64,000 bases of DNA from NCBI GenBank assembly GCA_963734295.1, contig CAVTGS010000012.1, forward strand, positions 586,429 through 650,428. Direction: 5' to 3'. The notes below the pieces were generated by a model. That model was not told the DNA's origin and did no database searches. It saw only the letters and a program-made list of their open reading frames with translations. Source of the stretch: an uncultured beta proteobacterium (GTDB lineage: Bacteria; Pseudomonadota; Gammaproteobacteria; Burkholderiales; JAEUMW01). A program made the translations under genes and the position numbers. Positions 2,610 through 64,000 of this stretch are shown piece by piece (positions within the stretch are counted from its first letter, which is position 1; every line of letters starts with the position of its first letter).

Positions 2610-3061
2610 AGATCGCCGTCTTCTTTCACGTGCTCGGGGTAGTGGTCTGGGTCGGCGGCATGTTCTTCGCCTACATGGCGCTGCGCCCTGCCGCGGCGCA
2701 GCTGCTCGAACCGCCGCAGCGACTTGCCCTCTGGCAGGAAACGCTACGGCGATTCTTCAACTGGGTGTGGCTCGCCGTGGCGCTCGTGCTCGCGAGCGGG
2801 CTCTGGATGCTGTTGCGCATGGGCGGCTTCGCGGGAGCGCCCGCCTATGTTTACATCATGCTGCTGCTCGGTCTCGTGATGATCGTGATTTTCGCGCACG
2901 TTTTCTTCGCGCCCTTCAAGCGTCTTACCGCGAACGTCGCAGCCAAAGACTGGAAAGCTGCGGGCGCGGCGCTGAACGAGATCCGTAAGCGGGTCGCGCT
3001 CAACCTCGCCCTCGGCCTTCTCACCATTACCGTCGCGACGGCGGGGGCGGCCCTCCTCTGA
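2606..3061 (+). CDS. small integral membrane protein (4 predicted hydrophobic segments, CopD-like/unknown function)
   Basis: 151-aa ORF with four hydrophobic stretches ([73 protein letters not shown]). Start overlaps the rnhB stop. Confidence 0.55.
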
Positions 3062-3093
3062 CGGCTGCGCGGACGGCGGCCGCGTTCTCCAAC

Positions 3094-3876
3094 GTGAAGC
3101 ACATCGCGTCCTCTGCCAATCCGCTCTACCGCACGCTCTACAAGCTCGCGCGTTCGAGCCGGGAGCGCCGCAAACAGGCGCTCACCCTGATCGACGGCGT
3201 CCACCTGCTCGACGCGTATCTGCGCCAACGCGGCACGCCGCAACAGGTTCTCGTGGCGCAGACCGGGTCGAGCAGTGAGATCACGGCAGTGATCGAGCGG
3301 CTGCCGGCGCCACCGGTCGTCCTGGCCGACGCGCTCTTCGAATCGTTGACCGAGCTCAGGAGCCCGTCCGGCATCCTCGCGGTGATCCGGATTCCCAGCC
3401 CGCAGGCGCCTGCGCCGCCAGGCTGCTGGCTGCTCCTCGAAGACATCCAGGACCCCGGCAATCTCGGCTCCATTCTGCGGTCGGCAGCGGCCGCCGGCGC
3501 AAGCGATGCGTGGCTGTCGCAGGGATGCGCGGACGTCTGGTCGCCGAAGGTGTTGCGGGCAGGAATGGGCGCGCATTTCTCGTTGCGTCTTCACGACCGC
3601 GCCGATCTCGCCAACGCCGCGCTGCGCTGCACCGGGCGCGTCGTGGCTCTGACGGCGGATGGCGCCCGATCGATCTTCGAGCTCGATCTGACCGGGCCCA
3701 CGGCCTTTGCCCTGGGCAACGAGGGGGCAGGGCTCTCGGGGCCGCTGTGCGAGGCGGCGACCGAGCGCGCCGCCATACCGATGGCGGGGCACACGGAGTC
3801 GCTGAACGTCGCCGCGGCAGCGGCGATCTGCCTCTTCGAGCGGGTGCGGCAGATCGCCTCTGCCTGCGCTCGGTAG
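3094..3876 (+). CDS. TrmH/SpoU-family RNA 2'-O-methyltransferase
   Basis: 260 aa with SpoU motifs LLEDIQDPGNLGSILRSAAAAG, ALGNEGAGLS and IPMAGHTESLNVAAAAAICLFE. Confidence 0.85.
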   Translation: MKHIASSANPLYRTLYKLARSSRERRKQALTLIDGVHLLDAYLRQRGTPQQVLVAQTGSSSEITAVIERLPAPPVVLADALFESLTELRSPSGILAVIRIPSPQAPAPPGCWLLLEDIQDPGNLGSILRSAAAAGASDAWLSQGCADVWSPKVLRAGMGAHFSLRLHDRADLANAALRCTGRVVALTADGARSIFELDLTGPTAFALGNEGAGLSGPLCEAATERAAIPMAGHTESLNVAAAAAICLFERVRQIASACAR

Positions 3877-4955: not shown

Positions 4956-6644
<1,689 letters not shown>

Positions 6645-9157: not shown

Positions 9158-12100
9158 TCACGCGGCGGCAGCGGATCCGGCAAGCACGCCCACGTGCCCG
9201 AGGAGCTCGCACTCTTCGTACGGTTTCCCCAGATAGATGTCCACGCCCAGCTGGCGGGCGTATTCCCGATGCTTTGGGGCGAGCCTCGACGTGATCATGA
9301 TGATCGGCAGACTCGACGTGCGCTGGCTCGACTTGAGGTTCCTGGTAAGCTCGAACCCGTCCATGCGTGGCATCTCGATATCCACGAGCAGGACGTCGGG
9401 CCTCGTTTCCTGAATCTGCTGTAGTGCGTCGAGGCCGTCGCGCGCCGTGGTGACGCGGTAGCCATGCCGGACGAGCAGGCGGCTCGTGACGTTCCGGACG
9501 GTGAGAGAGTCGTCGACCACCATGACCAGCGGGGTTACCGGCACCTGTTCAGTGCTCGTGTCGAGCGGGCGCGCCTGGCTGATCCGGCCCCGTTCCACGA
9601 GCGATGCAGGGTTCAGGACCAGCACGATCTCCCCGTTTGGCAGGACACTTGCGCCGTTGACGCCGGGCAGTCCGGCGAGTTGCGGTCCGATCTTCTTCAG
9701 GACGATGTCCTGGTTGACCACGAGCTGATCGACTAGCACCGCGAGCCGACGCTGCCCGCTGTGTATCAGCAATGCGAACCTCGAGCGGTCCTCCGCAGGC
9801 GCCATGACTTCCCCGAGCAGTTGCGGCAGGTAGAACACAGGATAGCGGTTACCCATCCACTCGAGCTCTTTGTCTGCACCGCGCTCAGAGAGTCTGCTCG
9901 TCGGAACTTCTTGTACCTGCTCGACGAGGTTCGACAGGATCGCCCAGCGACGGCCTCCCGAAGAAACGAGGAGTGCCTTCGCGACTGCAAGCGTAAGGGG
10001 CACGCGGATGGTGAACGTGGTCCCACGTCCTCTTTCCGTCGCAATGTCCAGACTCCCGCCAAGGCCGCGGACCTCGTTCGCTACCACGTCCATGCCCACG
10101 CCCCGACCCGCCAGCTCGCTCACTTTGGCTGCAGTCGAGAAACCCGGCCGCAAGAGCATCTGTTCGAGCTCGGAAGGGGAGGGCTCAGCGTCAGCCGCCA
10201 ACCAACCTAGCTCGATGGCCTTCCCGCGAACGCGATCGTGGTCGATACCGCGTCCGTCGTCGGCCACGGAAACCAGCAGATCGTTGGTCTCCTGGCGGAG
10301 CATGAGGCGAATCGTCCCCGCCTCGGGCTTACCTGCGCAGAGACGCTGGTCGATGTCTTCGATACCGTGAGTGACCGCATTTCGCACCAGGTGCTCGAGC
10401 GGAGCGGCAATGCGCTCCAGCACGCCGCGGTCGACTTCCGTTTGTCCCCCCGCAACTTCGAGTGCGGCCTTCTTCCCGGTCTCGCGAGCCGCTTGCCGTG
10501 CCACACGGTAGAGGCGTTCGACAACGTTCTCGAACGTCACGGTGCGCAGGCGCATGAGGTCGTCCTGCAGACTGCGGATCAGGCGGGACTCGGAGCTCAT
10601 CGCTGCCTGCATTTCACCCAGGCCGTCGACCAGATGCTGCTGCACCGTGGTCACGTCGTGAAGGCTTTCGGCCATGAGCCGGGTAAGTTCCTGAAACCTC
10701 GTGAAGCGGTCGAACTCCAGCGGATCGAACACGGCATCGTGCTCTGCCGCCTGATTCTGCGTCGCCTGCAAGCGGCTTTCCGCCTGGATCTCGATCTCTT
10801 TCAACTGGCCTCGAAGCCTGACGACGCTGTCGGTAAGCTCGATAAGAAACTGCTTGAAGGTCTGCGCTTCCACCTCGATGCGGGCGCGCGAGATGCTGAT
10901 CTCACCGGCCTGATTGAGCAGGCGATCCAGGGTATCCGCAGCCACGCGAATGTGCGCGGACAACGAGGGTGCCGCTTCGGCACCGGTGCGCTCTTGCGGC
11001 GTCCCGGCGGCCTGGGTCGCACTATCCGGGCTCGCCGCTGCCCTCGACGGGAGATCCTGTTCCGGTTCGCCGTGCTCCAGCGTGTCGAAGCCGCTCGTCA
11101 AGCGATCGAATTCTCCTTCCAGCAGGTCGAGGATCTCGGGGCTTAACGCGCCTCGATCGAACGCACCTTCCAGGCGCCCTTCCATGACGTGGACCAGTTC
11201 GCCGAGACGTATTGCCCCGACCATCCTCGCACCGCCCTTGATAGTGTGGAGTAGCCGCCGGAGCGAATCGAAAGCAGCCACGTCGTTCGGTTCGTTCCGC
11301 AGGTGTCGAAGATCCTCACCGATCAAAGGCCCGAGGTCGTGAATCTCATCCAGAAAGATCGGGAGCAGCTGCGCGTCGATGTCGTCCTTGAGCACCCGCC
11401 GCTCGGAAGCGCCCCTGGTTGTGCTGCCCGGCGGGGGCATATCGCCTGCGGGTTCGCCCGACGTCGCGGCGCTGCTGCTCGCGCCTTCGACCGAGGAACC
11501 TGCAGACCTCTCCGAATCGAGAGTGGTCGCCTGACGATCTCGCGCAGGCCATGGCGGCGGGGCGCCCGGAGAAGCAACGCCAAGCTCCCTGAACGCAGTC
11601 GCCTGCGCGATGAGATCTGCCCGTCGATCGTCTGTGAGCTCCGGTGTGTTTCCGGCCGCCACCGTGTCGACCAATTCTTCCAGGGTCACGACCGCCGACT
11701 GCAATGCCTCGAGTGTTCTTGTGCAATTGCCGCTACCGAGCGGCGCGTTCTCGATAACGCTGGTGACCACCGTGATGTCGGGGAAGCCCGCGGTGCGCGC
11801 GATGCCGCCCAGGGTGTGAGCGGCACGCGTCAGCGCCTCCCACGCTTGCGCGTCTGCCGTGGGACCAAGGGCTGCGAGCCCGACCCGCAGGACCGTGACA
11901 TTCTGGCGTGCTTCTTCGACGAAGATTCGGAAGAGCGGAGCAGGAAGCGTCGAGACCCCGAACATGACCGCGTCGGGCAGGGACTCGGCGGTGGGCACCG
12001 CAATTGTCATGTCCAGGGAAGCCATGGGAACGGTACCCACACCATCCAAGTCCGCAGTTTGCGCGGTATCATCGACTGGCCCTGCCAGCTCTTGGGCAAC

Positions 12101-14518
12101 CCGATCTGCCTCTGCTGAGAGATGTGCGGTTCGCACCACCGTGCGACCGCGCTGCGCCACATCGGCGATCCATCCTGAAAACAGGTCGCGACTCAACGCC
12201 GCCAGCCTGATCAAGTCCTCCGAAGCAGGCCGTTCGGCATCAAGCCACTGGTTCAGCAGCGACTCGATTGTCCAGGCCGCGTCGCCGATCGCGTGCAGAC
12301 CGGCCATTCTCCCGCTGCCCTTGAGGGTGTGATAGCTTCGCCGCAGAGTCGTGAGATTGGCCCAGTCAGTGGGTTGCGCGCGCGCGCGCGCGAGGAGCTC
12401 GCCCATGGCATCGAGAAGCTCGTGCGCTTCCTCGATGAAGATGGACACGATTTCTGGATCAACGCCTTCGGCCGTCGCGTCCACCTCGATACCATCGGAA
12501 TCGGTGTCGCCCGCCAGCATCGAAGCACCGCAGTGCAAAGTGTCGAGCGGCTCCGTCAGACCGACCAGAACGTCCGCATTCGAATGGGGCGCGATCGCTG
12601 CCTCAGGCTCGTCCTGAAGCGCGCTCAGATCGAAGTGATCGAGGATCTCAGCCAGCTCTGCTTTGGTGACTTCTTCCCCGTAACGGAACGCCTCGGACAC
12701 GGCTCCTTCACTGCAGGTCATTGCAGCCTGCAGATCGAAGTCGAGCTCGCCGGGTTGCGTGGTTTGGAGCTCTTCGGTACAAGTCTGGAAATCGGGGACG
12801 CAGGATGAGGCGAGGAGAGCTTCCCGGGCGTCGAAGCGAGCGAGGATTGTTTCCACAGCCCGCAGCTCGTCCTCGTTTCCAAGGTTGAGCCCCTGCACGA
12901 AAAGCATCACGCTGCTCAGTCCTTCGGCCAGCAGCACGGTTTCCTCTTCGGAAATGCCGCGGGCGGGATCTTCCAGCACCGCAACTATCGAACTGCAACG
13001 ATCCATGAGCTGTGCAGCGGATTCCACGCCAAGGACGCTGAGCGCCCCGGTAACGCTTTGCAGCAGCCCCCGAAGTTCCGCGAGGGGAGGTATCGGAAGC
13101 TGATCACGGAAGAACGCATCGAGGCTCCGTTCTACCTGCTGCAGCGTGGCCGATATCTCACTGGCGACAACTCTGAGCAGCTCCCGATCCTGCTGCCGCG
13201 GGAGCAATGGCGCGCAGGTCATGCCGCCGTCTTCGGTTGCGTCTGCCCGCATAGGCGAGACGCATGCGAGCAACCGCTCGCGAATGGCTTGGAGCTCCGC
13301 GGCGGCCTCGTGTGTTGCAAAGTCGTGGCTTAGCCGAGTTCTCTCGACGATCATCATCGCCTCGGTCATCTCGAGGATGACGGCGGCCCTCTGCTCGGGG
13401 CTCAAGACGACGAGCTCTGCCGCGACCGACTGCATTGCTTCCAACAGCATGCTGAGGGGTAGGCTTCCAAGCCCGGCGGCAAGCTCAGCCAGTCTTGCCA
13501 AGCATGCTTGAAGCTCTCCAGCCTCTACTGGTGAGCAGTCCGGTCCGGTCCAGGCATGTCTGGCGAGAGTGAGAAGATCCTGGGCCTCACGGAGAACCGG
13601 CTCGAGCTTCGTGGCATCGATCTCGACGACGTTGGCCGTTCCTGAGGGTGCAAAGTAGCGATCGAGTTCATAAAGCGACTTCACGTCCCGAACGAGCTGG
13701 GTCACCGGTTGGCAATGCGCCAGGTGGAATAGCAGCTCGCGCATCAAATCGTCGCTCGCCCCCATTCCTGCGGCAAACGCCGCCAGATAACGGTCGATCT
13801 TACCTGCCGCGCGCTTGGTTTCGGCCGCGCTCGGTAATCCCCCATGCAATAGTCCTTCGACGAACGCGGAGGCCACCCACCAAGGGGCCCGAATGTCCGG
13901 CGCCGGCTGGGCGCGCTCGATCTCCTGGAGCGCATCCCGCATCCGCGCGAGACCGTTCTCCGACTGACGCAGCCAGCTCAGCATCCCACGTTGGAAGTGG
14001 CTGCGCTGGATCTTCACCAGGTCATGGAGCGCGTCGCCCTCCAGCAACATACCGGAGGCGAGCAGAGGAGGGAAGACGTTCAGGTCCGGATGAACCAGGG
14101 ATCGGTCGTCCGCCGATTCGCCACCCCGCGCACGCACCAACTCGTTCATGAGCGGGAGCAGGCACATTGCGTTCTCGGGCGCGCCAGCCATCAGCTCGCA
14201 CAGGTACTGCTCTAGCCGCGCGCTGGCTCGATCGACGAGATCCTTTACTTCCGGGGTCGGTGTCACTTCCTCCTTCGCCAGTGCTTCAAGGACCGTGTCC
14301 ATCTCCTTCGAAAACCTTCCAACCGCCTCCATGCCGATGATCTGGAGGGCACCCGTAACCTCTCGCACCGACGCCAGCGCTGCCGACAGGGCATCTGCGT
14401 TTCGGAGCGGCTCTGCAAAGTAGGTCGCCACAGAGGAGCGGACCCGCCCGAGCGCGAAATCGATCTCGGGCTTGACCCACGTGAGGGGCCCGGGCTGGGT
14501 CGCGAGACTGGCAGTCAT
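9158..14518 (-). CDS. chpA: hybrid CheA-type histidine kinase of the Pil-Chp system (multi-Hpt, HATPase, CheW-like, C-terminal receiver)
   Basis: Track ORF 9158..14587; preferred ATG at 14518 (MTASLATQPG...). Three canonical Hpt motifs (SYHTLKGSGRMAGL, AAHTLGGIARTAGF, LLHTIKGGARMVGA) plus degenerate Hpt-like repeats upstream. HATPase G-boxes (DDGRGID, GRGVGMDVV), a CheW-like domain and a receiver (VMVVDDSLTVR...DVLLVDIEMPRMDG...K). Lies downstream of pilJ. Confidence 0.85.
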   Translation of the reverse strand: MTASLATQPGPLTWVKPEIDFALGRVRSSVATYFAEPLRNADALSAALASVREVTGALQIIGMEAVGRFSKEMDTVLEALAKEEVTPTPEVKDLVDRASARLEQYLCELMAGAPENAMCLLPLMNELVRARGGESADDRSLVHPDLNVFPPLLASGMLLEGDALHDLVKIQRSHFQRGMLSWLRQSENGLARMRDALQEIERAQPAPDIRAPWWVASAFVEGLLHGGLPSAAETKRAAGKIDRYLAAFAAGMGASDDLMRELLFHLAHCQPVTQLVRDVKSLYELDRYFAPSGTANVVEIDATKLEPVLREAQDLLTLARHAWTGPDCSPVEAGELQACLARLAELAAGLGSLPLSMLLEAMQSVAAELVVLSPEQRAAVILEMTEAMMIVERTRLSHDFATHEAAAELQAIRERLLACVSPMRADATEDGGMTCAPLLPRQQDRELLRVVASEISATLQQVERSLDAFFRDQLPIPPLAELRGLLQSVTGALSVLGVESAAQLMDRCSSIVAVLEDPARGISEEETVLLAEGLSSVMLFVQGLNLGNEDELRAVETILARFDAREALLASSCVPDFQTCTEELQTTQPGELDFDLQAAMTCSEGAVSEAFRYGEEVTKAELAEILDHFDLSALQDEPEAAIAPHSNADVLVGLTEPLDTLHCGASMLAGDTDSDGIEVDATAEGVDPEIVSIFIEEAHELLDAMGELLARARAQPTDWANLTTLRRSYHTLKGSGRMAGLHAIGDAAWTIESLLNQWLDAERPASEDLIRLAALSRDLFSGWIADVAQRGRTVVRTAHLSAEADRVAQELAGPVDDTAQTADLDGVGTVPMASLDMTIAVPTAESLPDAVMFGVSTLPAPLFRIFVEEARQNVTVLRVGLAALGPTADAQAWEALTRAAHTLGGIARTAGFPDITVVTSVIENAPLGSGNCTRTLEALQSAVVTLEELVDTVAAGNTPELTDDRRADLIAQATAFRELGVASPGAPPPWPARDRQATTLDSERSAGSSVEGASSSAATSGEPAGDMPPPGSTTRGASERRVLKDDIDAQLLPIFLDEIHDLGPLIGEDLRHLRNEPNDVAAFDSLRRLLHTIKGGARMVGAIRLGELVHVMEGRLEGAFDRGALSPEILDLLEGEFDRLTSGFDTLEHGEPEQDLPSRAAASPDSATQAAGTPQERTGAEAAPSLSAHIRVAADTLDRLLNQAGEISISRARIEVEAQTFKQFLIELTDSVVRLRGQLKEIEIQAESRLQATQNQAAEHDAVFDPLEFDRFTRFQELTRLMAESLHDVTTVQQHLVDGLGEMQAAMSSESRLIRSLQDDLMRLRTVTFENVVERLYRVARQAARETGKKAALEVAGGQTEVDRGVLERIAAPLEHLVRNAVTHGIEDIDQRLCAGKPEAGTIRLMLRQETNDLLVSVADDGRGIDHDRVRGKAIELGWLAADAEPSPSELEQMLLRPGFSTAAKVSELAGRGVGMDVVANEVRGLGGSLDIATERGRGTTFTIRVPLTLAVAKALLVSSGGRRWAILSNLVEQVQEVPTSRLSERGADKELEWMGNRYPVFYLPQLLGEVMAPAEDRSRFALLIHSGQRRLAVLVDQLVVNQDIVLKKIGPQLAGLPGVNGASVLPNGEIVLVLNPASLVERGRISQARPLDTSTEQVPVTPLVMVVDDSLTVRNVTSRLLVRHGYRVTTARDGLDALQQIQETRPDVLLVDIEMPRMDGFELTRNLKSSQRTSSLPIIMITSRLAPKHREYARQLGVDIYLGKPYEECELLGHVGVLAGSAAAA

Positions 14519-14534
14519 AGGGTCTTTGCGGCCG

Positions 14535-16757
14535 TCACACCTTGAAGCCTGCGACCGACACCTTGAGTTTGTTGGCGAGATCCGCAATCTGGGCCATCGA
14601 ATCTGCAGTCCACTTTGTTCCCTTGGTGCTTTGTGTCGTGACGTTCAGCAGATCTTGCATACGCTGCGCCAATTGCTTGGCGACTTGCTGCTGACCTAGC
14701 GTGGACGAGGAAATGGATGCGATCAGTTCCGCCAGCCGGTGTGAGACGTCCCGAATCTCCTTCAAAGCCCGGCCAGCCGAATCCGCGAGCTGGGCGCCGC
14801 GCACGACGCCGTTCGTGCTCTGCTCCATGGCTGCCACGGCGTCCTGGGTATCGTGCTGAATCGCCATCACGATTGCGGCGATCTGCTTGGTCGCCTCGCC
14901 CGAGCGTTCCGCGAGTCTTTGTACCTCCTCCGCGACAACCGTGAAGCCCCGTCCGGCCTCGCCCGCGGCAGCGGCCTGAATGGCCGCGTTCAAGGCGAGA
15001 ACGTTGGTCTGCTCGGTGATCGCGGCAATGAGCTGAACGATCTCGCCGATCTCTTGCGAGCTCTCACCGAGGCGCTTGATTCGTTTTGACGTCTCCTGAA
15101 TCTGCTCGCGCAGGTCGTTCATGCTCGAGATCGAATCCTCCACCGCGGTAGCACCCTTGCCCGACGCAGCAAGCGATTGTTCAGCCACCTCGGCGCACTT
15201 CGAAGCGTCGTCCGAGACGGCGTCCATCGTGGACGTCATCTGCAACACCGACGTCGTAGCCTCCTCGATCTGATGGGACTGCTTTTCGGCAACCTGCAGG
15301 AGATGGACCGATACGGCTTTGCCTTGGGTGGACGAGTTTGTTAGCTGGCTCGCAGCCGAATTGATCTGCGCCACGAGGGAACGCAACTCGTCGATGGCGT
15401 AGTTCACCGAGTCCGCGATCGCGCCGGTCATGTCTTCCGTAACCTGCGCGTGCTTCGTGAGATTGCCTTCCGCGAGGTCCGACATGTCGTCCAGCAAACG
15501 GAGAATCGCCTGTTCGTTGCGGCGGTTTTCGATTTCGTTCTTGAGCGCGCGCGCCCGAACATCATCGAGCAGCACTTTCGCGATTAGCGCCAACCCGATC
15601 AGAGTCATCATCGTAAACAGCACGCCGCTCGCAATCCCGCCCCAACCGCCCCCGGCATCCCGGTAGTTGCTGGTCAGCATATCGATCCTGCCGAGCATCT
15701 CCTGAGTGCCCTTCGAGACATTGCGTGCCGCTTGCTTCGCCTGCGCAAGACCCTCCATGTTCTTGACGATACTGTCGATGCTCACCTTGAGCCCGGTCAT
15801 GGTCTTCAGGAGCTCACTGGCCGTGTCGCGGTTGACGGGGTGCAGAAGGGCGCTGATTCCCGCCTCGGGATTGCCGTCCAAAAGCCCCTTGAGCGTCCCG
15901 ATGAAGCTGCCGACGTTTTTCGCGAGCTGAAGTGCCACCTGGGGAGTCGGTTGATCGGTGGAGACGAGAGACTTGGCGTCGAGAAGATCAAAGTTGAGCA
16001 CGTCAGCGTAGAGCTGGCGCGTCCAGGCAACGGCCCGATAGTCCTCCCCTCGGTCGATCGCGCCCTGCAGGAGCGCTTGACTCAGACTCAATACCTTGGT
16101 CCCGCTGGTTTCGATCATCTCCTCCTGTTTTCGCAGTTGCACGAGGTTCGGCTGTTGGCTGTGGATCCTGGTGACTTGATCGTTGATCGGCTGCCAGCTC
16201 TCCGCGATCTTGACCAGAATCGGCTTCTCCGTTTCCGAGGCGGCGGGAAGATCGACGCCTTTTCGCGTACCGCCCTGCGTCAACAACGTCAGGTCATCGA
16301 CGAGACGGTCGCGGTTTTCCTGTAGCAGCTTGAAAGCACCGGCATCACCGGATACTGCCTGTTGGGCGAGGTTCGCCAAGCGCTGCGCGAGGAGCTGAAT
16401 GTCGTTAGCAACGATAGCCTGCTCCCGCTTGAGGCGAGCATCCCACACCGACACACCAAAGGCAGCCAGCGTAAGCAGTAGCAGAAGTGCGATCACGATC
16501 GAGAGCACCTCGATCTGCCGCGAGAACGGCAGCCTGCCGATCAGAGGGATCTGCCAACTGGGCGTACTCTCGCTCTTGCGGGAGAATCGGTTGACAAGAC
16601 TGCGCAGCGTAAACGGATCGTCAACTTCGCTTTGGGGCGAGACCTCTGCATTCTCGGCGCTCGCTCCCGACATAATGGGTGGGTCATTCTGTGCATTCGG
16701 CGTCCTCTTCCCGAACGCGAGGGAAGGCAGTTTCAGGGCGGACACGATCGACGCCAT
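14535..16757 (-). CDS. pilJ: methyl-accepting chemotaxis protein PilJ
   Basis: 740 aa with an N-terminal TM, a large periplasmic region, a second TM and the conserved MCP signalling hairpin ...[38 protein letters not shown].... Confidence 0.85.
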
Positions 16758-59552: not shown

Positions 59553-62500
59553 TCAGTGGTTCCCAACGCTCCATCCGCGCAAGGCGGCGTCGATCTCCGG
59601 CAGCTTGACTGTCCACTGCCCTTCGAGCGCGGTGGCGCGCAGCGCTCGCAACTCGGCGTGGAGCGCGTCGCTGCGCTCGCCGCGACCGGCCCGGGCGAGC
59701 AGCCTGCCGCAGGCGCTCATGAACTCGGCCCAGGGGAAGGGCTCTTGGCGGGTGTAATGGATGATGGCTTCGGCGTAGCGAAGCGCCGGGTCCCACTCAC
59801 GCGCTGCGAGCGATGCCGTGATCGCGGCATCGTAGAAATAGAGATGTGCGTGGCTGACGCACCCCGCGGCGAGCAGCGCCTCGCCCTCGGCGAGTGCCCA
59901 GCGGCGGCGATCCGGGTCGTCGGTCGTCTGCGCGATGAAGCCGAGCACGGTCGGACCGATGTACTGGGGTCCCGTAACCCGCGTCAGCGCCCATGCGGCA
60001 TCGAGGAGCTCGGCCGCCTCCGCGAATTCCCCCAGGCCATGTGCGGCAAGGCCGATCTGCGCCAGAGCCTCGGCCTCGAATCGTTGCGCACCCAGGCGCC
60101 GTGCGAGCTCCAGGGAACGCTCGGCTTCGACACGAGAGAGCGCCCATGCACCGCGCATGTGCTGGAAGGCGCTCAGGATGTCGCGCGCGAGCATTTCCGC
60201 ACGCAGGTCGCCGATGCGTGCGGCGAGGTCGAGCGCGGCGTGGCAGTGCTTGGTCACCGCGTCGGGGTCGGCGAGATAGAGGTCGAGGACCGCGAGCATG
60301 GGCAGGTTGGCGAGCTCGATGCGGACGAAGCCGTGCTCGCGAGCAAGCGCGACGCAGCGCCTGAAATGCTCGTGGGCCGAGCGCATGCGCCCCTCCTGGT
60401 AGAAGGCGTCGCCCAGCCCGCCGAGCGCACGCGCCTCTGCGAGCGCCGAGCCCGCACGCCGGGCGTAGTCCAGCGCCTGCTCGTGGGCGCGTCGACACGC
60501 TTCCACGTCGCCCTGCGGAAAGTGGACGTTGCCGCGCAGGAAATGGATCTCGGCCAGCGCTTCGGCATCGTCGATCTCAACAGCCGCGGCTTCCGCCTCG
60601 GCCAACGCCGCGAGCGCCTCGCCGTAGCGATCGAGGACGCGCAGTCCAGCGGCGACACCGATGAATGCATGGCACCGCTCGCGCGCGCCGTCGGCACACT
60701 CGATCGCCTGGCGGAACGCCTCGACCGAGTCGCCCGTGCGGCCAAGCTCGCGCAGGATGTCGCCGCGCAGGCAGGCCAGGCCGTGCTGCAGCGGACGCTC
60801 ATCGGCGAGGGCGAGCCCGCGCTCCGCGAGAGCGAGCGCCCGTTCGTAACGAAACTGCCCGGCCTCTGTCTTCGCGGCGCGGACGTAGGCGGCCGCAGCG
60901 CCGGGATCGCATGCCGCGTCGAGATGCTCCGCTGCGAGCGTGGCGTCGTCCCCGGCGTACCAGGTCGCCGCCTGCCGATGAAGCGCCTGGCGCTTCGACT
61001 TCAGCACCGATGCATAGACCGCCTCGTGGATCAGGGCGTGAGCAAAAAGCCAGGCGTCGCCCTCCGGGCGTACCAGCGCCTGCTCGGTGAGCTTCGTGCA
61101 CGCATACTCGGGGTCGGCGACGAGCTCGCGCAGGGCAGCGAGCGCGAACCTCTGACCGAGCACGGCAGCCGCCTGAACCGCCTGCCGGTCGACAGGATCG
61201 AGCCGGTCGAGGCGCGCCAGCACCAGGCTCTGGATCGAACCGGGCAGCGCTCCACGCTCTTGGCCTGCGCGCAACAGCTGGTCGAGGAACAAGGGATTGC
61301 CTTCCGCCCGGGCGACGCACGCTTGCACGAAACCCTGATCGTGGGCGCCGTAGTGGCTCGCCAGCAGGGCCGCCTCAGCGTCGCTCAGGGGGCCGAGGTC
61401 GATGGTGGTGAGCGCCGTCCCCCCGGTGGCGGCGCGCCAGCCGGCGCCGATTGGATCGTTCTCCGGGCGAGTGATGAGCAGCAATATGACGGGGAACGCA
61501 CGCATGGCGGCCGCGAGGCGCGCCAGATGATCGAGCACCCCGGCGTCGGCCCAGTGGATGTCTTCGACGACGATCAACCGCGGCTGCCGTGCGCTCCGCG
61601 CACGCATGAGCGCGTCGAGCAGCGCCTGCCGGCCGCCGGTGCGGGCGGTATTGTCCATCGCCTGCAGCGCGTGCTGCGCATCCGTCGTCTGCGGCAGATC
61701 CAGGAAGTCGTTCAAAAAGACCACGAGATCCTGCCCGATCCACCCCTCGGCCAGCGCTGCCTGCGCTGCGGTGTGGCGCGCCGACATCGGTGCGTCCGGT
61801 CCGAGATCGACCAGGTCGCGTACGAGCACGTCGATCGGCCCTCCAGCACCCCCGCCGAAATCGAGCACCAGCGTCTTGTGGCAGGCGAAGCCCTGCTCGC
61901 GCGCGATCCCCGCACACGCCTCGAGCAAGCGGCTCTTGCCGATGCCCGCGTCGCCGCGCACCACCACCACATGGCCGCTGCGCCCCGCGAAGCAGTCGCG
62001 GACGATGCCCTCGAACTGGCGCAGCTCCGCTTGCCTGCCTACGAAGGGTACCGACCGGCGCTGCTCCCACGGGTCGGTCATGCGCCGAGCGCGCCACAGC
62101 TTGAGGGGTCTCGACATGGCCGGCATCGCAACTTCCGCGACCTCGTCCGCCTCGAGGCGATCGGCGAGCGCCTGCCGTACCCGGTGCGACAGCCACAGCT
62201 CGCCCGGCGCGGCTGCCTCCGCGATGCGTCCGGCAACGCTCACCGGCTCGCCGCTGACCGCCAGGCCGTCCGCGTCCTGAGTCACCACCAGCGTGCCGCT
62301 CGCGACCCCGAGGTGGACGCCGATGCCGGCCGTCCCAGACACCTCGTCGCGGATCGCGAGTGCAGCGCGCACGGCGCGCTCCGCATCGTTGCCGTGCGCC
62401 ACCGGCACACCGAAGACGGCCATGACCCGGGAGCCGACGTGGCTCAGGACGGTACCGCCGGAACGGGCCACGCAGGCCCCTACCCTGTCGCGCCAGGCGG

Positions 62501-63413
62501 AGAGCAGCGCGTGCATTTCCTCGGGGTCGGTCGTGCCCGCGCTGGCGTCGGCGAGCTCGGCGACGAGCACCGTCGCCTGACGCAGCTCCGGTCCGCCCAG
62601 CGTCGGCGTAGCTGCCTGGGAAGGCGCGGAAGCGCCGGGAACCTGCTCCGCCGCCGCGGCGAGAGAGCCAGACACGGCCAGCGGTGGTGCGCGGCGCTCG
62701 CGCAGGATGCGTCGGTACAGATCCTCCGTCGTCGCTTCGGGCGAGATGCCCAGCTCGCGCTGCAGGATCGCCCGGCACAGCCGGTATTGCTTCAGCGCCG
62801 CGGCTTGGCGGCCCTGGCGATCGTACAGCGTCATCAGCCGGCGGTGCGCGTCCTCGCGCAGCGAATCGAGCGCGAGCAACCGGGTCGTGGTCTCCGTCGC
62901 ACGCGCGAGCTGCCCGGCTCGCTCCTGGCTCTCGGCGAGCCGAGCGAGCAGCGCGAGGGCCTGTTGGCGCCAGCGCTCGCGCTCGACCGAGAGCCACTCG
63001 TCGAACGCCGGTGCGCCAGCCTGGAAGCCCTCCAGCAAGTCGCCCCGGTAGAGCGCTGCCGCCCGCTCCAGGGCAACCGTCGAACCCTCCGCGAGCGCCG
63101 CAGAGTAATCGCGCACGTCGCACGTGAAAGCAGATGGAGACAAGGCAACCGTTGCGCCGTCGACCAGCAGCAGGTCGCCGTCGAGGCACTTGCGCAGGCC
63201 GGACAACGCCTGCCGCAGGCTCGTCCTGGCTTGCTCCTCGCCGCTCTCTCCCCACAGCAGGTCGGCGAGCTTGCCCCGCGGCTGCGGCCGCGCGCCGGAC
63301 ACGGCGAGGTATGCGATGAGCGCCCGCGCCTTGCGTCCTGGCAACACGATCTCCTCCGCCGCGTCAGCGATGAGAGCAAAGCCGCCGAAGAGTTCGAGAC
63401 GCAGCCTAGCCAC
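59553..63413 (-). CDS. AfsR-like multidomain regulator: SARP wHTH + BTAD / class III cyclase-like domain / P-loop STAND ATPase / TPR array
   Basis: 1286 aa, GTG start. wHTH+BTAD covers aa 1-245 (MARLRLELFGGFAL...LLWGES..EQARTSLRQALSGLRK...ALYRGDLLEGF...DEWL..ERERW...YRLCRAILQRELGISPE..T..LY). The cyclase-like domain covers aa ~278-445 (TVLVAELADAS...VGSRVMAVFGVPVAHGNDAERAVRAALAI). Walker A GDAGIGKS is at aa 487-494 (nt 61932-61955). The C-terminal ~600 aa are TPR-like helical repeats. Confidence 0.8.
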   Translation of the reverse strand: MARLRLELFGGFALIADAAEEIVLPGRKARALIAYLAVSGARPQPRGKLADLLWGESGEEQARTSLRQALSGLRKCLDGDLLLVDGATVALSPSAFTCDVRDYSAALAEGSTVALERAAALYRGDLLEGFQAGAPAFDEWLSVERERWRQQALALLARLAESQERAGQLARATETTTRLLALDSLREDAHRRLMTLYDRQGRQAAALKQYRLCRAILQRELGISPEATTEDLYRRILRERRAPPLAVSGSLAAAAEQVPGASAPSQAATPTLGGPELRQATVLVAELADASAGTTDPEEMHALLSAWRDRVGACVARSGGTVLSHVGSRVMAVFGVPVAHGNDAERAVRAALAIRDEVSGTAGIGVHLGVASGTLVVTQDADGLAVSGEPVSVAGRIAEAAAPGELWLSHRVRQALADRLEADEVAEVAMPAMSRPLKLWRARRMTDPWEQRRSVPFVGRQAELRQFEGIVRDCFAGRSGHVVVVRGDAGIGKSRLLEACAGIAREQGFACHKTLVLDFGGGAGGPIDVLVRDLVDLGPDAPMSARHTAAQAALAEGWIGQDLVVFLNDFLDLPQTTDAQHALQAMDNTARTGGRQALLDALMRARSARQPRLIVVEDIHWADAGVLDHLARLAAAMRAFPVILLLITRPENDPIGAGWRAATGGTALTTIDLGPLSDAEAALLASHYGAHDQGFVQACVARAEGNPLFLDQLLRAGQERGALPGSIQSLVLARLDRLDPVDRQAVQAAAVLGQRFALAALRELVADPEYACTKLTEQALVRPEGDAWLFAHALIHEAVYASVLKSKRQALHRQAATWYAGDDATLAAEHLDAACDPGAAAAYVRAAKTEAGQFRYERALALAERGLALADERPLQHGLACLRGDILRELGRTGDSVEAFRQAIECADGARERCHAFIGVAAGLRVLDRYGEALAALAEAEAAAVEIDDAEALAEIHFLRGNVHFPQGDVEACRRAHEQALDYARRAGSALAEARALGGLGDAFYQEGRMRSAHEHFRRCVALAREHGFVRIELANLPMLAVLDLYLADPDAVTKHCHAALDLAARIGDLRAEMLARDILSAFQHMRGAWALSRVEAERSLELARRLGAQRFEAEALAQIGLAAHGLGEFAEAAELLDAAWALTRVTGPQYIGPTVLGFIAQTTDDPDRRRWALAEGEALLAAGCVSHAHLYFYDAAITASLAAREWDPALRYAEAIIHYTRQEPFPWAEFMSACGRLLARAGRGERSDALHAELRALRATALEGQWTVKLPEIDAALRGWSVGNH

Positions 63414-63427
63414 GGACAGTTGCCACT

Positions 63428-63482
63428 TTCACGCTTTCTTCACGCTGGTGCTCACGGCAGCTTGACGGCACCTGCCTACGAT
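63428..63482 (+). promoter_or_regulatory. four phased heptamer direct repeats plus a -10-like hexamer (candidate SARP/OmpR-type activator site and promoter)
   Basis: TTCACGC (63428-34), tttc, TTCACGC (63439-45), tggtg, CTCACGG (63451-57), cagc, TTGACGG (63462-68), then 8 nt cacctgcc, then TACGAT (63477-82). It lies between the regulator start (63413, minus) and the ATG at 63540 (plus). Confidence 0.5.
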
Positions 63483-63539
63483 GCATCCGGAAATAACAAG
63501 ACACGATCCAAATGACCCATCGAACGAGAGGACTCTGCC

Positions 63540-64000
63540 ATGACACTCACCGACTGCCGGGACAACCCCGTCTCCACCCATAATCGTACCGCCGTCGAAC
63601 GGCTCGAAGCGGCAACCGAGCTCTTGCACGGCTATTTCGGCGACCCGCTCGGCGCGATCGACCGCGCGCTCGCCGAAGATCCGGAGTTCGTGATGGGCCA
63701 CGCGTTTCGCGCGGGCCTCCTGATCACCGCTGCCGACGGCGCGGTGAAGCCCCTGCTTCGCGAAAGCGTCGAGGCGGGCGCAGCGCTGGCCCACCGCGCG
63801 AACGATCGCGAGCGCCGCCACCTCGCTGCGGCACGCGCCTGGCTCGATGGCGATTTTGCCGGTTCGATCCAGCGCTACGGCGACATCGTCGTCGCACTAT
63901 CCGCGCGACAGCTTTGCGCTGCAGGTCGCCCACATCGGCGATTTCCTGCTCGGCCATTCGACCATGCTGCGGGATCGTGTCGCCCAGGTGCTGCCCGCCT
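63540..64000 (+). CDS. TTC38-family TPR protein, 5' part (runs off window; apparent frameshift near 63893)
   Basis: ATG 63540 is preceded by gagagg. Sequence MTLTDCRDNPVSTHNRTAVERLEAATELLHGYFGDPL...DPEFVMGHAFRAGLL.... After ...YGDIVV the conserved continuation HYPRDSFALQVAHIGDFLLGHSTMLRDRVAQVLPA is in the +1 frame (from 63895). Confidence 0.6.
   Translation, partial: MTLTDCRDNPVSTHNRTAVERLEAATELLHGYFGDPLGAIDRALAEDPEFVMGHAFRAGLLITAADGAVKPLLRESVEAGAALAHRANDRERRHLAAARAWLDGDFAGSIQRYGDIVVALSARQLCAAGRPHRRFPARPFDHAAGSCRPGAAR

Follow-up and report, generated by a model that had tools for sequence, protein, structure and literature searches.

A phased array of TTCACGS heptamers beside a SARP-type regulator gene is a probable activator-dependent promoter in Proteobacteria

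A segment of 55 bp (positions 63428-63482) in a 64,000-nucleotide stretch of DNA, referred to here as the window, probably comprises the operator and the core elements of a promoter that depends on an activator and serves a TTC38-like gene starting at 63540. The segment contains an array of four phased heptamers, and the SARP regulator encoded next to the array quite likely binds it, judging from genetic linkage, exchanges of the target gene, and co-variation of protein and DNA sequences. Binding by the regulator, activation rather than repression, the -10 element with its transcription start, and the switch mechanism outlined below are what we infer from these sequence comparisons.

Arrangement of the heptamers and promoter elements

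The array is located between two divergently oriented genes. Its elements and those belonging to the target gene are the following.

63428..63434, plus strand: R1, TTCACGC, read directly from the sequence; best-conserved element with 1.67 bits/position (13 non-redundant loci)
63439..63445, plus strand: R2, TTCACGC, 11 bp after R1; 1.62 bits/position (13 non-redundant loci)
63451..63457, plus strand: R3, CTCACGG, occupying the would-be -35 position; 0.75 bits/position in the family
63462..63468, plus strand: R4, TTGACGG, its end separated by 8 bp from the -10-like hexamer; 1.46 bits/position
63477..63482, plus strand: putative -10-like hexamer TACGAT, predicted from the sequence; the hexamer at +49 in the family
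63526..63531, plus strand: Shine-Dalgarno sequence GAGAGG of the target gene, kept in two metagenomic orthologues (L001 and L002) in which the remaining leader diverges
63540..64000, plus strand: 5' part of the target gene for a TTC38-like, all-helical TPR protein, running past the end of the window

The repeats are arranged head to tail with start-to-start spacings of 11, 12, and 11 bp. The regulator gene begins on the opposite strand with a GTG codon 15 bp from R1, and the ATG of the target gene is found at 63540. In the initial annotation of this DNA, the heptamers and TACGAT had been placed correctly to the base, and GAGAGG and the ATG follow downstream as described there. A layout of the SARP type, phased repeats followed at 8 bp by a -10 element, had also been recognised there. 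Taking TACGAT as the presumed -10, this layout matches the rule published for Streptomyces SARPs, according to which direct repeats are 11 or 22 bp apart and the 3' repeat is located 8 bp from the -10 (PMC10936776).

A simple scan of the region 63300-63700 revealed no sigma-70 -35/-10 pair, and a terminator scan of the same region gave no match. The absence of a -35/-10 pair would fit a promoter depending on an activator that occupies the -35 region.

Conservation of the array and its register

Repeats of this kind could have arisen by chance in an intergenic region rich in GC and have no function. Chains of at least three T[CG]ACG units with spacings of 10-12 bp were searched on both strands of the 64-kb window, and the array was unique, the motif being that of the earlier reader and picked after the fact. 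In motif-blind tests with 1061 other 126-bp segments of the window, exact 5-mer chains of at least three units were present in six, and 6-mer chains (one mismatch at most) of at least four units, the value observed for the array, in 17. About 0.6-1.6% of such segments display equally strong phasing (p about 0.006-0.016), and the phasing within the window is therefore by itself suggestive, not decisive. It is the conservation in other genomes that effectively refutes a chance origin and renders it extremely improbable. Register and heptamer are shared by 17 protein-anchored loci from three proteobacterial classes, and the pattern TSACG-N6-TSACG-N18-TSACG occurs 11 times on both strands of 751 kb (the window plus 82 protein-anchored loci), compared to about 0.04 occurrences expected by our own estimate from the unit density. 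The genomic position is always the same, since each of the 11 is found between divergent genes, upstream of one that codes for a full-length regulator homologue. TSACG pairs were also noticed in loci of Paraburkholderia and Caballeronia; they fall within conserved coding sequence of the opposite strand and were set aside.

The 17 protein-anchored arrays stem from alpha-, beta-, and gammaproteobacteria, and each is located near a homologue of the 1286-aa regulator. Counted from R1 at 0, the offsets are +11 for R2, +23 for the degenerate R3, +34 for R4, and +49 for a TAnnnT-like hexamer. While R1, R2, and R4 are kept in all 17 loci, the R1-R2 spacing is 11 bp in 16 of them and 10 bp in Steroidobacter (L006); owing to this shorter spacing, R4 is found at +33 in that locus, the R2-R4 distance in the family being 23. 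The TAnnnT-like hexamer is separated from R4 by exactly 8 bp in 16 of 16 aligned loci and likewise in Skermanella. Its first T is present in all 16 aligned sequences, the A at position 2 in 15, and the T at position 6 in 12. In the set of 13 non-redundant loci, the information content of the hexamer is 0.96 bits/position, that of the spacers 0.33-0.70, and that of the flanks about 0.4.

The family consensus of the heptamer is TTCACGS. Alignment of orthologous intergenic regions had been suggested in the initial annotation as a check of heptamer phase, and the phase is conserved in the 17 loci. The description of four heptamers stands for the window, in which R3 is a good copy, but it has to be modified for the family, in which only R1, R2, and R4 are strongly conserved. 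With 0.75 bits/position, R3 is a weak copy family-wide, and it usually keeps just a central (C/G)AC.

The same elements are recognisable over different evolutionary distances. In the two metagenomic orthologues (L001 and L002), with regulators 84% and 80% identical to that of the window, all four heptamers and TACGAT are unchanged, and substitutions within the array are confined to the spacers. Wider loci were obtained by an alignment query on species-representative genomes; a single-protein query gave no match. Divergent pairs of a regulator gene and a TTC38-like gene were detected in Cupriavidus necator, C. gilardii, another Cupriavidus, a betaproteobacterial MAG, Lysobacterales, Steroidobacter, a gammaproteobacterial MAG, and Albidovulum. 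An array is present in each of these loci in a single gapless register, the R1-R2 spacing of Steroidobacter being the only exception.

The regulator

The gene upstream of the array on the opposite strand specifies a multidomain protein, for which the following features are relevant.

59553..63413, minus strand: regulator of 1286 aa, consisting of a SARP module (OmpR-type winged helix and BTAD), a degenerate cyclase-homology domain, AAA_16, and a TPR array
63189..63233, minus strand: codons of the recognition helix, residues 61-75 (QARTSLRQALSGLRK), with the T64 codon at 63222-63224
62118..62534, minus strand: cyclase-homology domain, catalytic residues lost, reading ATVLVAELADAS, VGSRVMAVFGVP, and SGEPVSVAGR
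61488..62048, minus strand: ATPase domain of the AAA_16 type, both Walker A (GDAGIGKS) and Walker B (LIVVEDIHWAD) being intact

Searches against Pfam identified BTAD at residues 109-237 (1.4e-24), AAA_16 at residues 456-642 (9e-18), TPRs at the C-terminus, and a weak match to Guanylate_cyc below the cutoff at residues 294-432 (4.6e-4). Trans_reg_C was not reported by Pfam for the regulator of the window and is precomputed for several homologues. In a sequence search of the PDB, residues 21-247 matched AfsR (3.4e-13, chains 8hvr and 8k60) and residues 25-242 EmbR (2fez, 4.5e-9). The BTAD hit and the matches to these two structures bear out the earlier statement that the adjacent gene encodes a SARP winged helix and BTAD. 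The N-terminus, V/M-ARLRLELFGGF, agrees with the N-termini of homologues, MxxxRLxLLGGF, which supports the GTG start.

Compared with the class III cyclase motifs, the cyclase-homology domain has other residues in place of one metal-binding Asp and of the catalytic Asn. Paralogues lacking the SARP module retain such motifs, VTVLFADLCGFTAL (FADLCGFT) and IGDAVMA.FGAP. Residues of Walker A and B, G487, G490, G492, K493, E617, D618, and H620, are invariant across 26 homologues.

A classification of the protein as AfsR orthologue was ruled out, since it reached 62.9 bits with the NCBIfam AfsR model NF053617, far from the cutoff of 1430, with the match confined to the 270 residues at the N-terminus. 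This corrects the label AfsR-like in the initial annotation. In its order of SARP, cyclase-like, AAA_16, and TPR parts, the protein appears to resemble the PimR-type SARP-LAL class more than AfsR. Homologues of the same architecture are encoded in Cupriavidus, Skermanella, Azospirillum, Steroidobacter, Albidovulum, and others, and the closest named relative in the homologue search is a fragment from Rubritepida sp. with 83% identity. The family has thousands of members in the databases and is without a characterised representative.

The target gene

Orthologues of the target gene encode proteins of 456 aa. DNA alignments with both L001 and L002 revealed a 1-bp insertion at 63894/63895 in the window, which shifts the reading frame. 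When the L001 orthologue was used in tblastn, its residues 1-118 aligned with 63540-63893, and the match continued in another frame with residues 119-153 at 63895-63999. The protein has more than 7000 homologues at E <= 1e-10, and the label TTC38 comes from UniRef, where some of these relatives are named 'Tetratricopeptide repeat protein 38'. Neither Pfam nor NCBIfam contained a family model for the protein, and a relative was likewise missing from the PDB. The surroundings in the window are ordinary chromosome with genes for RNase E, UvrB, chemotaxis, and an ABC transporter, and Rfam and tRNA scans of the window detected a tRNA-Asn only.

Assignment of the array to the target promoter

Among the conserved loci, the distance from R1 to the start of the regulator gene varies from 15 to 171 nt, while the distance from the array to the -10 is constant. 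In Skermanella sp. TT6 (L212), regulator and TTC38-like gene are not divergent. An array consisting of TTCACGG, TTCACGC, ATGACGG, and GTGACAG, followed after 8 bp by TAGCGT, precedes the TTC38-like gene in this strain and is about 3 kb away from the regulator gene. The constant distance to the -10, the variable distance to the regulator gene, and the Skermanella layout indicate that the array belongs to the target promoter. Autoregulation, which the initial annotation had considered on account of the overlap with the 5' region of the regulator gene, does not agree with these distances as a conserved feature and may apply to the compact locus of the window. The array was not detected upstream of the full-length homologues in L047, L051, and L206, nor upstream of the Skermanella homologues in L208 and L212, the L212 array being the one in front of the TTC38-like gene. 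Other repeat types are found with the more distant plasmid-borne homologues in L210 and L211.

The regulator could also use the array mainly as a repressor, or as autoregulatory operator of the divergent promoter pair. R3 and R4 are predicted to be inside the core promoter (about -38 to -21), where repressors bind too, and the regulator transcript must begin within or beyond the array, because R1 is just 15 bp from the start of the regulator gene. Nevertheless, this possibility is regarded as quite improbable. The BTAD/SARP family consists of activators, the geometry fits that of AfsR in its activation complex (PMC10936776), a -35 element that a repressor could occlude is absent, and it is the target -10, not the start of the regulator gene, to which the array keeps a fixed distance.

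With regard to the binder of the array, loci with other target genes are informative. A regulator-array pair is located in front of a gene for an Rv2258c-like methyltransferase in L016 and L207, a fatty-acid hydroxylase weakly similar to OlsE in L204, and small ORFs in L203. The array stays paired with the regulator when the target gene changes.

Residue 64 of the regulator and position 3 of the heptamer

Array-linked regulators share an almost unchanged recognition helix, AR[T/S/A]SLRQAL. In an alignment with AfsR, for which T88 and R92 have been described as the residues contacting bases (PMC10936776), Q68 of the regulator is opposite T88. Residue T64 precedes Q68 by one helical turn on the same face, and residue 64 is consequently on the DNA-facing side of the helix.

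The nature of this residue coincides with the base at position 3 of the heptamer. Where T, S, A, or V is present at residue 64 (12 loci), R1 and R2 contain TTCACG, the locus of the V64 regulator included, and where H is present (five loci), R1, R2, and R4 contain TTGACG. Both loci in which TTGACG was initially seen, L004 and L016, encode H64 regulators. For H64 proteins that were then chosen by protein sequence alone, TTGACG was predicted, and it was found in three out of three loci with a divergent gene. The H64 regulators constitute a single clade, so that the co-variation may reflect one evolutionary event. On the other hand, both regulator clades include alpha- and gammaproteobacterial hosts, which means that the array type follows the regulator and not the host class. 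In the window, R4 reads TTGACGG although the regulator has T64, and position 3 is apparently not strictly read at each repeat.

Arrays in metagenomes and other candidate binders

A scan of metagenomes on the DNA level only, with the pattern TTCACG-N5-TTCACG-N18-TSACG-N9-TA, yielded at least 120 loci. Among the 120 matches listed, a homologue of the regulator is divergently adjacent in 47 and nearby in four more, and a TTC38-like gene is located downstream in about 48. In 69 of the 120 listed, no SARP gene is present on the recovered sequence, 32 of these having at least 1.5 kb of upstream flank. The genes following such orphan arrays specify LpxR, DUF2202, a fatty-acid hydroxylase, an acyltransferase, alpha/beta-hydrolases, RTX-like proteins, small secreted proteins, and a secreted protein remotely TTC38-like. 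The orphan arrays are either targeted in trans by the SARP regulator family or belong to a CreB- or ColR-like regulator that recognises a similar half-site.

This second option may be extended to all arrays, which would then be bound by a trans-encoded response regulator of the OmpR family, CreB- or ColR-type, with the linkage of SARP and TTC38-like genes having another functional reason. R1-R2 of the window read TTCACGCTTTCTTCAC and match TTCAC-N6-TTCAC, the published definition of the cre/blr tag (PMC13214185). The E. coli creD promoter contains TTCACCG, TTCACAT, and TTCAAAT in 11- and 10-bp phasing beside -10-like hexamers. More than half of the listed metagenomic arrays lack a SARP gene on the recovered sequence, many precede cell-envelope genes (LpxR, acyltransferase, fatty-acid hydroxylase), as is typical of two-component regulons, and the consensus sequences of SARP-linked and orphan arrays are nearly identical. 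However, searches with OmpR (an approximate sequence) and E. coli CreB as probes detected an OmpR-type response regulator in just one of the 120 loci listed, where some 4.5 kb separate it from the array, and the window does not encode any that has a winged helix. Ten candidate ORFs of 200-250 aa beside orphan arrays were inspected by eye, and none resembled a response regulator. Furthermore, the array remains with the SARP gene across target changes, C or G at position 3 tracks residue 64 of the regulator across host classes, and the G at position 6, invariant in the aligned arrays, is missing from the E. coli cre tag copies. A response regulator as binder of the window array is therefore considered unlikely. 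Nonetheless, it is a CreB-type protein that represents the real rival, not PhoB as proposed in the initial annotation, since R1-R2 equal the cre/blr tag and the heptamer is not the pho box CTGTCAT, for which reason the pho box reading was rejected. The assignment of regulator, operator, and target made in that annotation is, as a prediction, supported by the common register, linkage, and protein-DNA co-variation.

Proposed mechanism

In the favoured reading, each N-terminal SARP domain of the 1286-aa divergent regulator would occupy a single heptamer. The conserved R1-R2 pair could serve as a high-affinity anchor, and R4 and the weak R3 would be filled cooperatively, in the manner demonstrated for monomers of PimR (PMC5930380). 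If transcription started about 7 nt after TACGAT, the heptamers would be placed at roughly -61, -50, -38, and -27. R3 and R4 would then span about -38 to -21, matching the AfsR protomer pair on the afs box (-40 to -19), where the AfsR dimer substitutes for the -35 contact (PMC10936776). Activation may likewise be accomplished by replacing the contact of sigma region 4 with the -35. The C-terminal part with the degenerate cyclase-like domain, the P-loop ATPase, and the TPRs presumably gates the activity, possibly as an ATP- or ligand-dependent oligomerisation switch.

Implications

A broader view can be put forward tentatively. TTCACG(S) arrays might represent a widespread class of proteobacterial promoters that is read by a large family of SARP-ATPase-TPR switches. 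These would control the neighbouring gene, TTC38-like, methyltransferase, or hydroxylase, and in trans an envelope and secreted regulon (LpxR, OlsE-like hydroxylase, acyltransferase, DUF2202), and T or S versus H at residue 64 would set C versus G at position 3. The literature searched contained no account of this SARP system in Proteobacteria or of the TTCACGS heptamer, nor of TTC38-like, methyltransferase, or hydroxylase targets or a specificity link to residue 64. SARPs have been described in a review as exclusive to Actinobacteria (PMC10972967), a distribution contradicted by the proteobacterial homologues of the same architecture.

SARPs have been studied almost solely as switches of antibiotic clusters, while the same operator logic appears here in alpha-, beta-, and gammaproteobacteria. 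If the broader view is true, SARP-type activation would extend well beyond Actinobacteria and antibiotic control. The assignment itself provides an experimental system in which the probe is defined, T64H with C3G is the predicted specificity-swap pair, and hosts such as Cupriavidus necator are genetically tractable. It would also give a starting point for studying what bacterial TTC38-like proteins do, and it serves as a warning that cre-tag-like motifs obtained by pattern searches may belong to another class of regulators.

Comparison with known systems

Among winged-helix regulators, PhoB and its pho box share with the window array 7-bp direct repeats with 4-bp spacers and, in the reading proposed here, replacement of the -35 and head-to-tail binding of the winged-helix domains. 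The pho box reads CTGTCAT and is located about 10 bp from the -10, and neither feature matches the window array. EmbR of Mycobacterium tuberculosis has the SARP fold of winged helix and BTAD in common with the regulator, but it possesses an FHA domain, is controlled by a Ser/Thr kinase, and is devoid of an ATPase or TPR part.

The CreB cre/blr tag, known from E. coli, Aeromonas, Pseudomonas, and Stenotrophomonas, has the TTCAC core at an 11-bp period (PMC13214185). CreB contains an OmpR-type winged helix as well, and at least three phased copies are found near a -10-like element in the E. coli creD promoter. In contrast to the regulator described here, CreB is a phosphorylated response regulator of about 230 aa, and the arrays are not linked to a gene of this kind.

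The arrangement of the array comes close to that of AfsR and the afs box at afsS of Streptomyces coelicolor. In both systems an N-terminal SARP module is combined with a C-terminal ATPase and TPRs, the 11-bp repeats are oriented head to tail, the last of them at a distance of 8 bp from the -10, and the site covers the -35 and the spacer region (PMC10936776). Differences concern both partners. The regulator here has AAA_16 and a cyclase-like domain, compared to the NB-ARC-type described in reviews of large SARPs, and T88 and R92 of AfsR correspond to Q68 and G72. There are four sites instead of two, with the upstream pair best conserved, and the heptamer is TTCACGS. Finally, the host belongs to the Proteobacteria, and the target gene does not encode an antibiotic regulator.

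Regulators of the PimR-type SARP-LAL class (PimR, FilR, PteR, SanG, PolR) are likened to the protein by domain architecture. They also combine SARP, a guanylate-cyclase-like domain without the signature, and a P-loop ATPase, they likewise lack a C-terminal LuxR helix-turn-helix, and their sites are heptameric direct repeats with 4-bp spacers, three in the case of PimR, which binds cooperatively with at least two monomers needed (PMC5930380, PMC10972967). However, CGGCAAG is the heptamer of PimR, whose main operator is free of overlap with the -35. Members of the class act in actinobacterial biosynthetic clusters, with a PAS-LuxR regulator as target. Operator logic and regulator architecture are both already known from Streptomyces.

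Arrays without a neighbouring SARP gene

The DNA-only scan of metagenome loci for the array pattern (L083 to L202) revealed that a SARP regulator is not always located next to such an array. Of the listed matches that show the complete pattern, roughly half lack the regulator in the flanking sequence covered, for example L097, L103, L111, L115, L130, and L146. In these matches, the orphan arrays are positioned 80-150 bp upstream of their downstream genes, which specify LpxR, a fatty-acid hydroxylase, a DUF2202 protein, an acyltransferase, small secreted proteins, and a secreted TTC38-related protein. The orphan arrays may constitute a trans regulon, or they may be sites of a different regulator sharing the half-site.

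In L207, an alpha/beta-hydrolase gene (5561-6382) has the same orientation as the regulator gene and overlaps its stop codon; alpha/beta-hydrolases are also encoded downstream of the orphan arrays of L088 and L170.

Target gene and distant regulators

Compared with both close orthologues, the TTC38-like target gene contains one additional base (window 63889-63896, GTCGTCG-C-ACTAT), by which the frame is shifted past about codon 118. Either the frameshift is genuine and this strain's copy is a pseudogene, or the base is a sequencing or assembly error.

Upstream of more distant, plasmid-borne SARP-ATPase homologues (L211, ~5800-5850, and L210, ~5890-5950, minus strand), phased repeats of differing type were detected, which could define additional specificity classes:

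Paraburkholderia sp. PGU19: TTTACGG-TGTT-TTTACGC; recognition helix ARASLRQTL
Sinorhizobium terangae: TCACACG, TCACACC, TTGACGG; recognition helix ARTNLRQTL

On a plasmid of Skermanella sp. TT6 (L212, 518-5565), genes for a protein with a TIR domain and for the reverse transcriptase of a group II intron lie directly upstream of the regulator, and the ancestral divergent arrangement appears to be disrupted.

Paralogues without the SARP module are present in Paraburkholderia (L011, L013, and L030, ~2800-3300), their N-terminal segment being read as a SAM domain. Because the canonical cyclase catalytic motifs (FADLCGFT, IGDAVMA) are retained in these paralogues but lost in the SARP-fused proteins, the sequences suggest that, once fused to SARP, the cyclase domain took on a non-catalytic role as a sensor or spacer.

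Chemotaxis genes in the window

9158-16757, minus strand: 1809-aa CheA-like hybrid kinase and 740-aa methyl-accepting chemotaxis protein

Three Hpt matches as well as HATPase_c, CheW, and a receiver domain are found in the kinase, which is adjoined by the chemotaxis protein. The kinase recalls ChpA.
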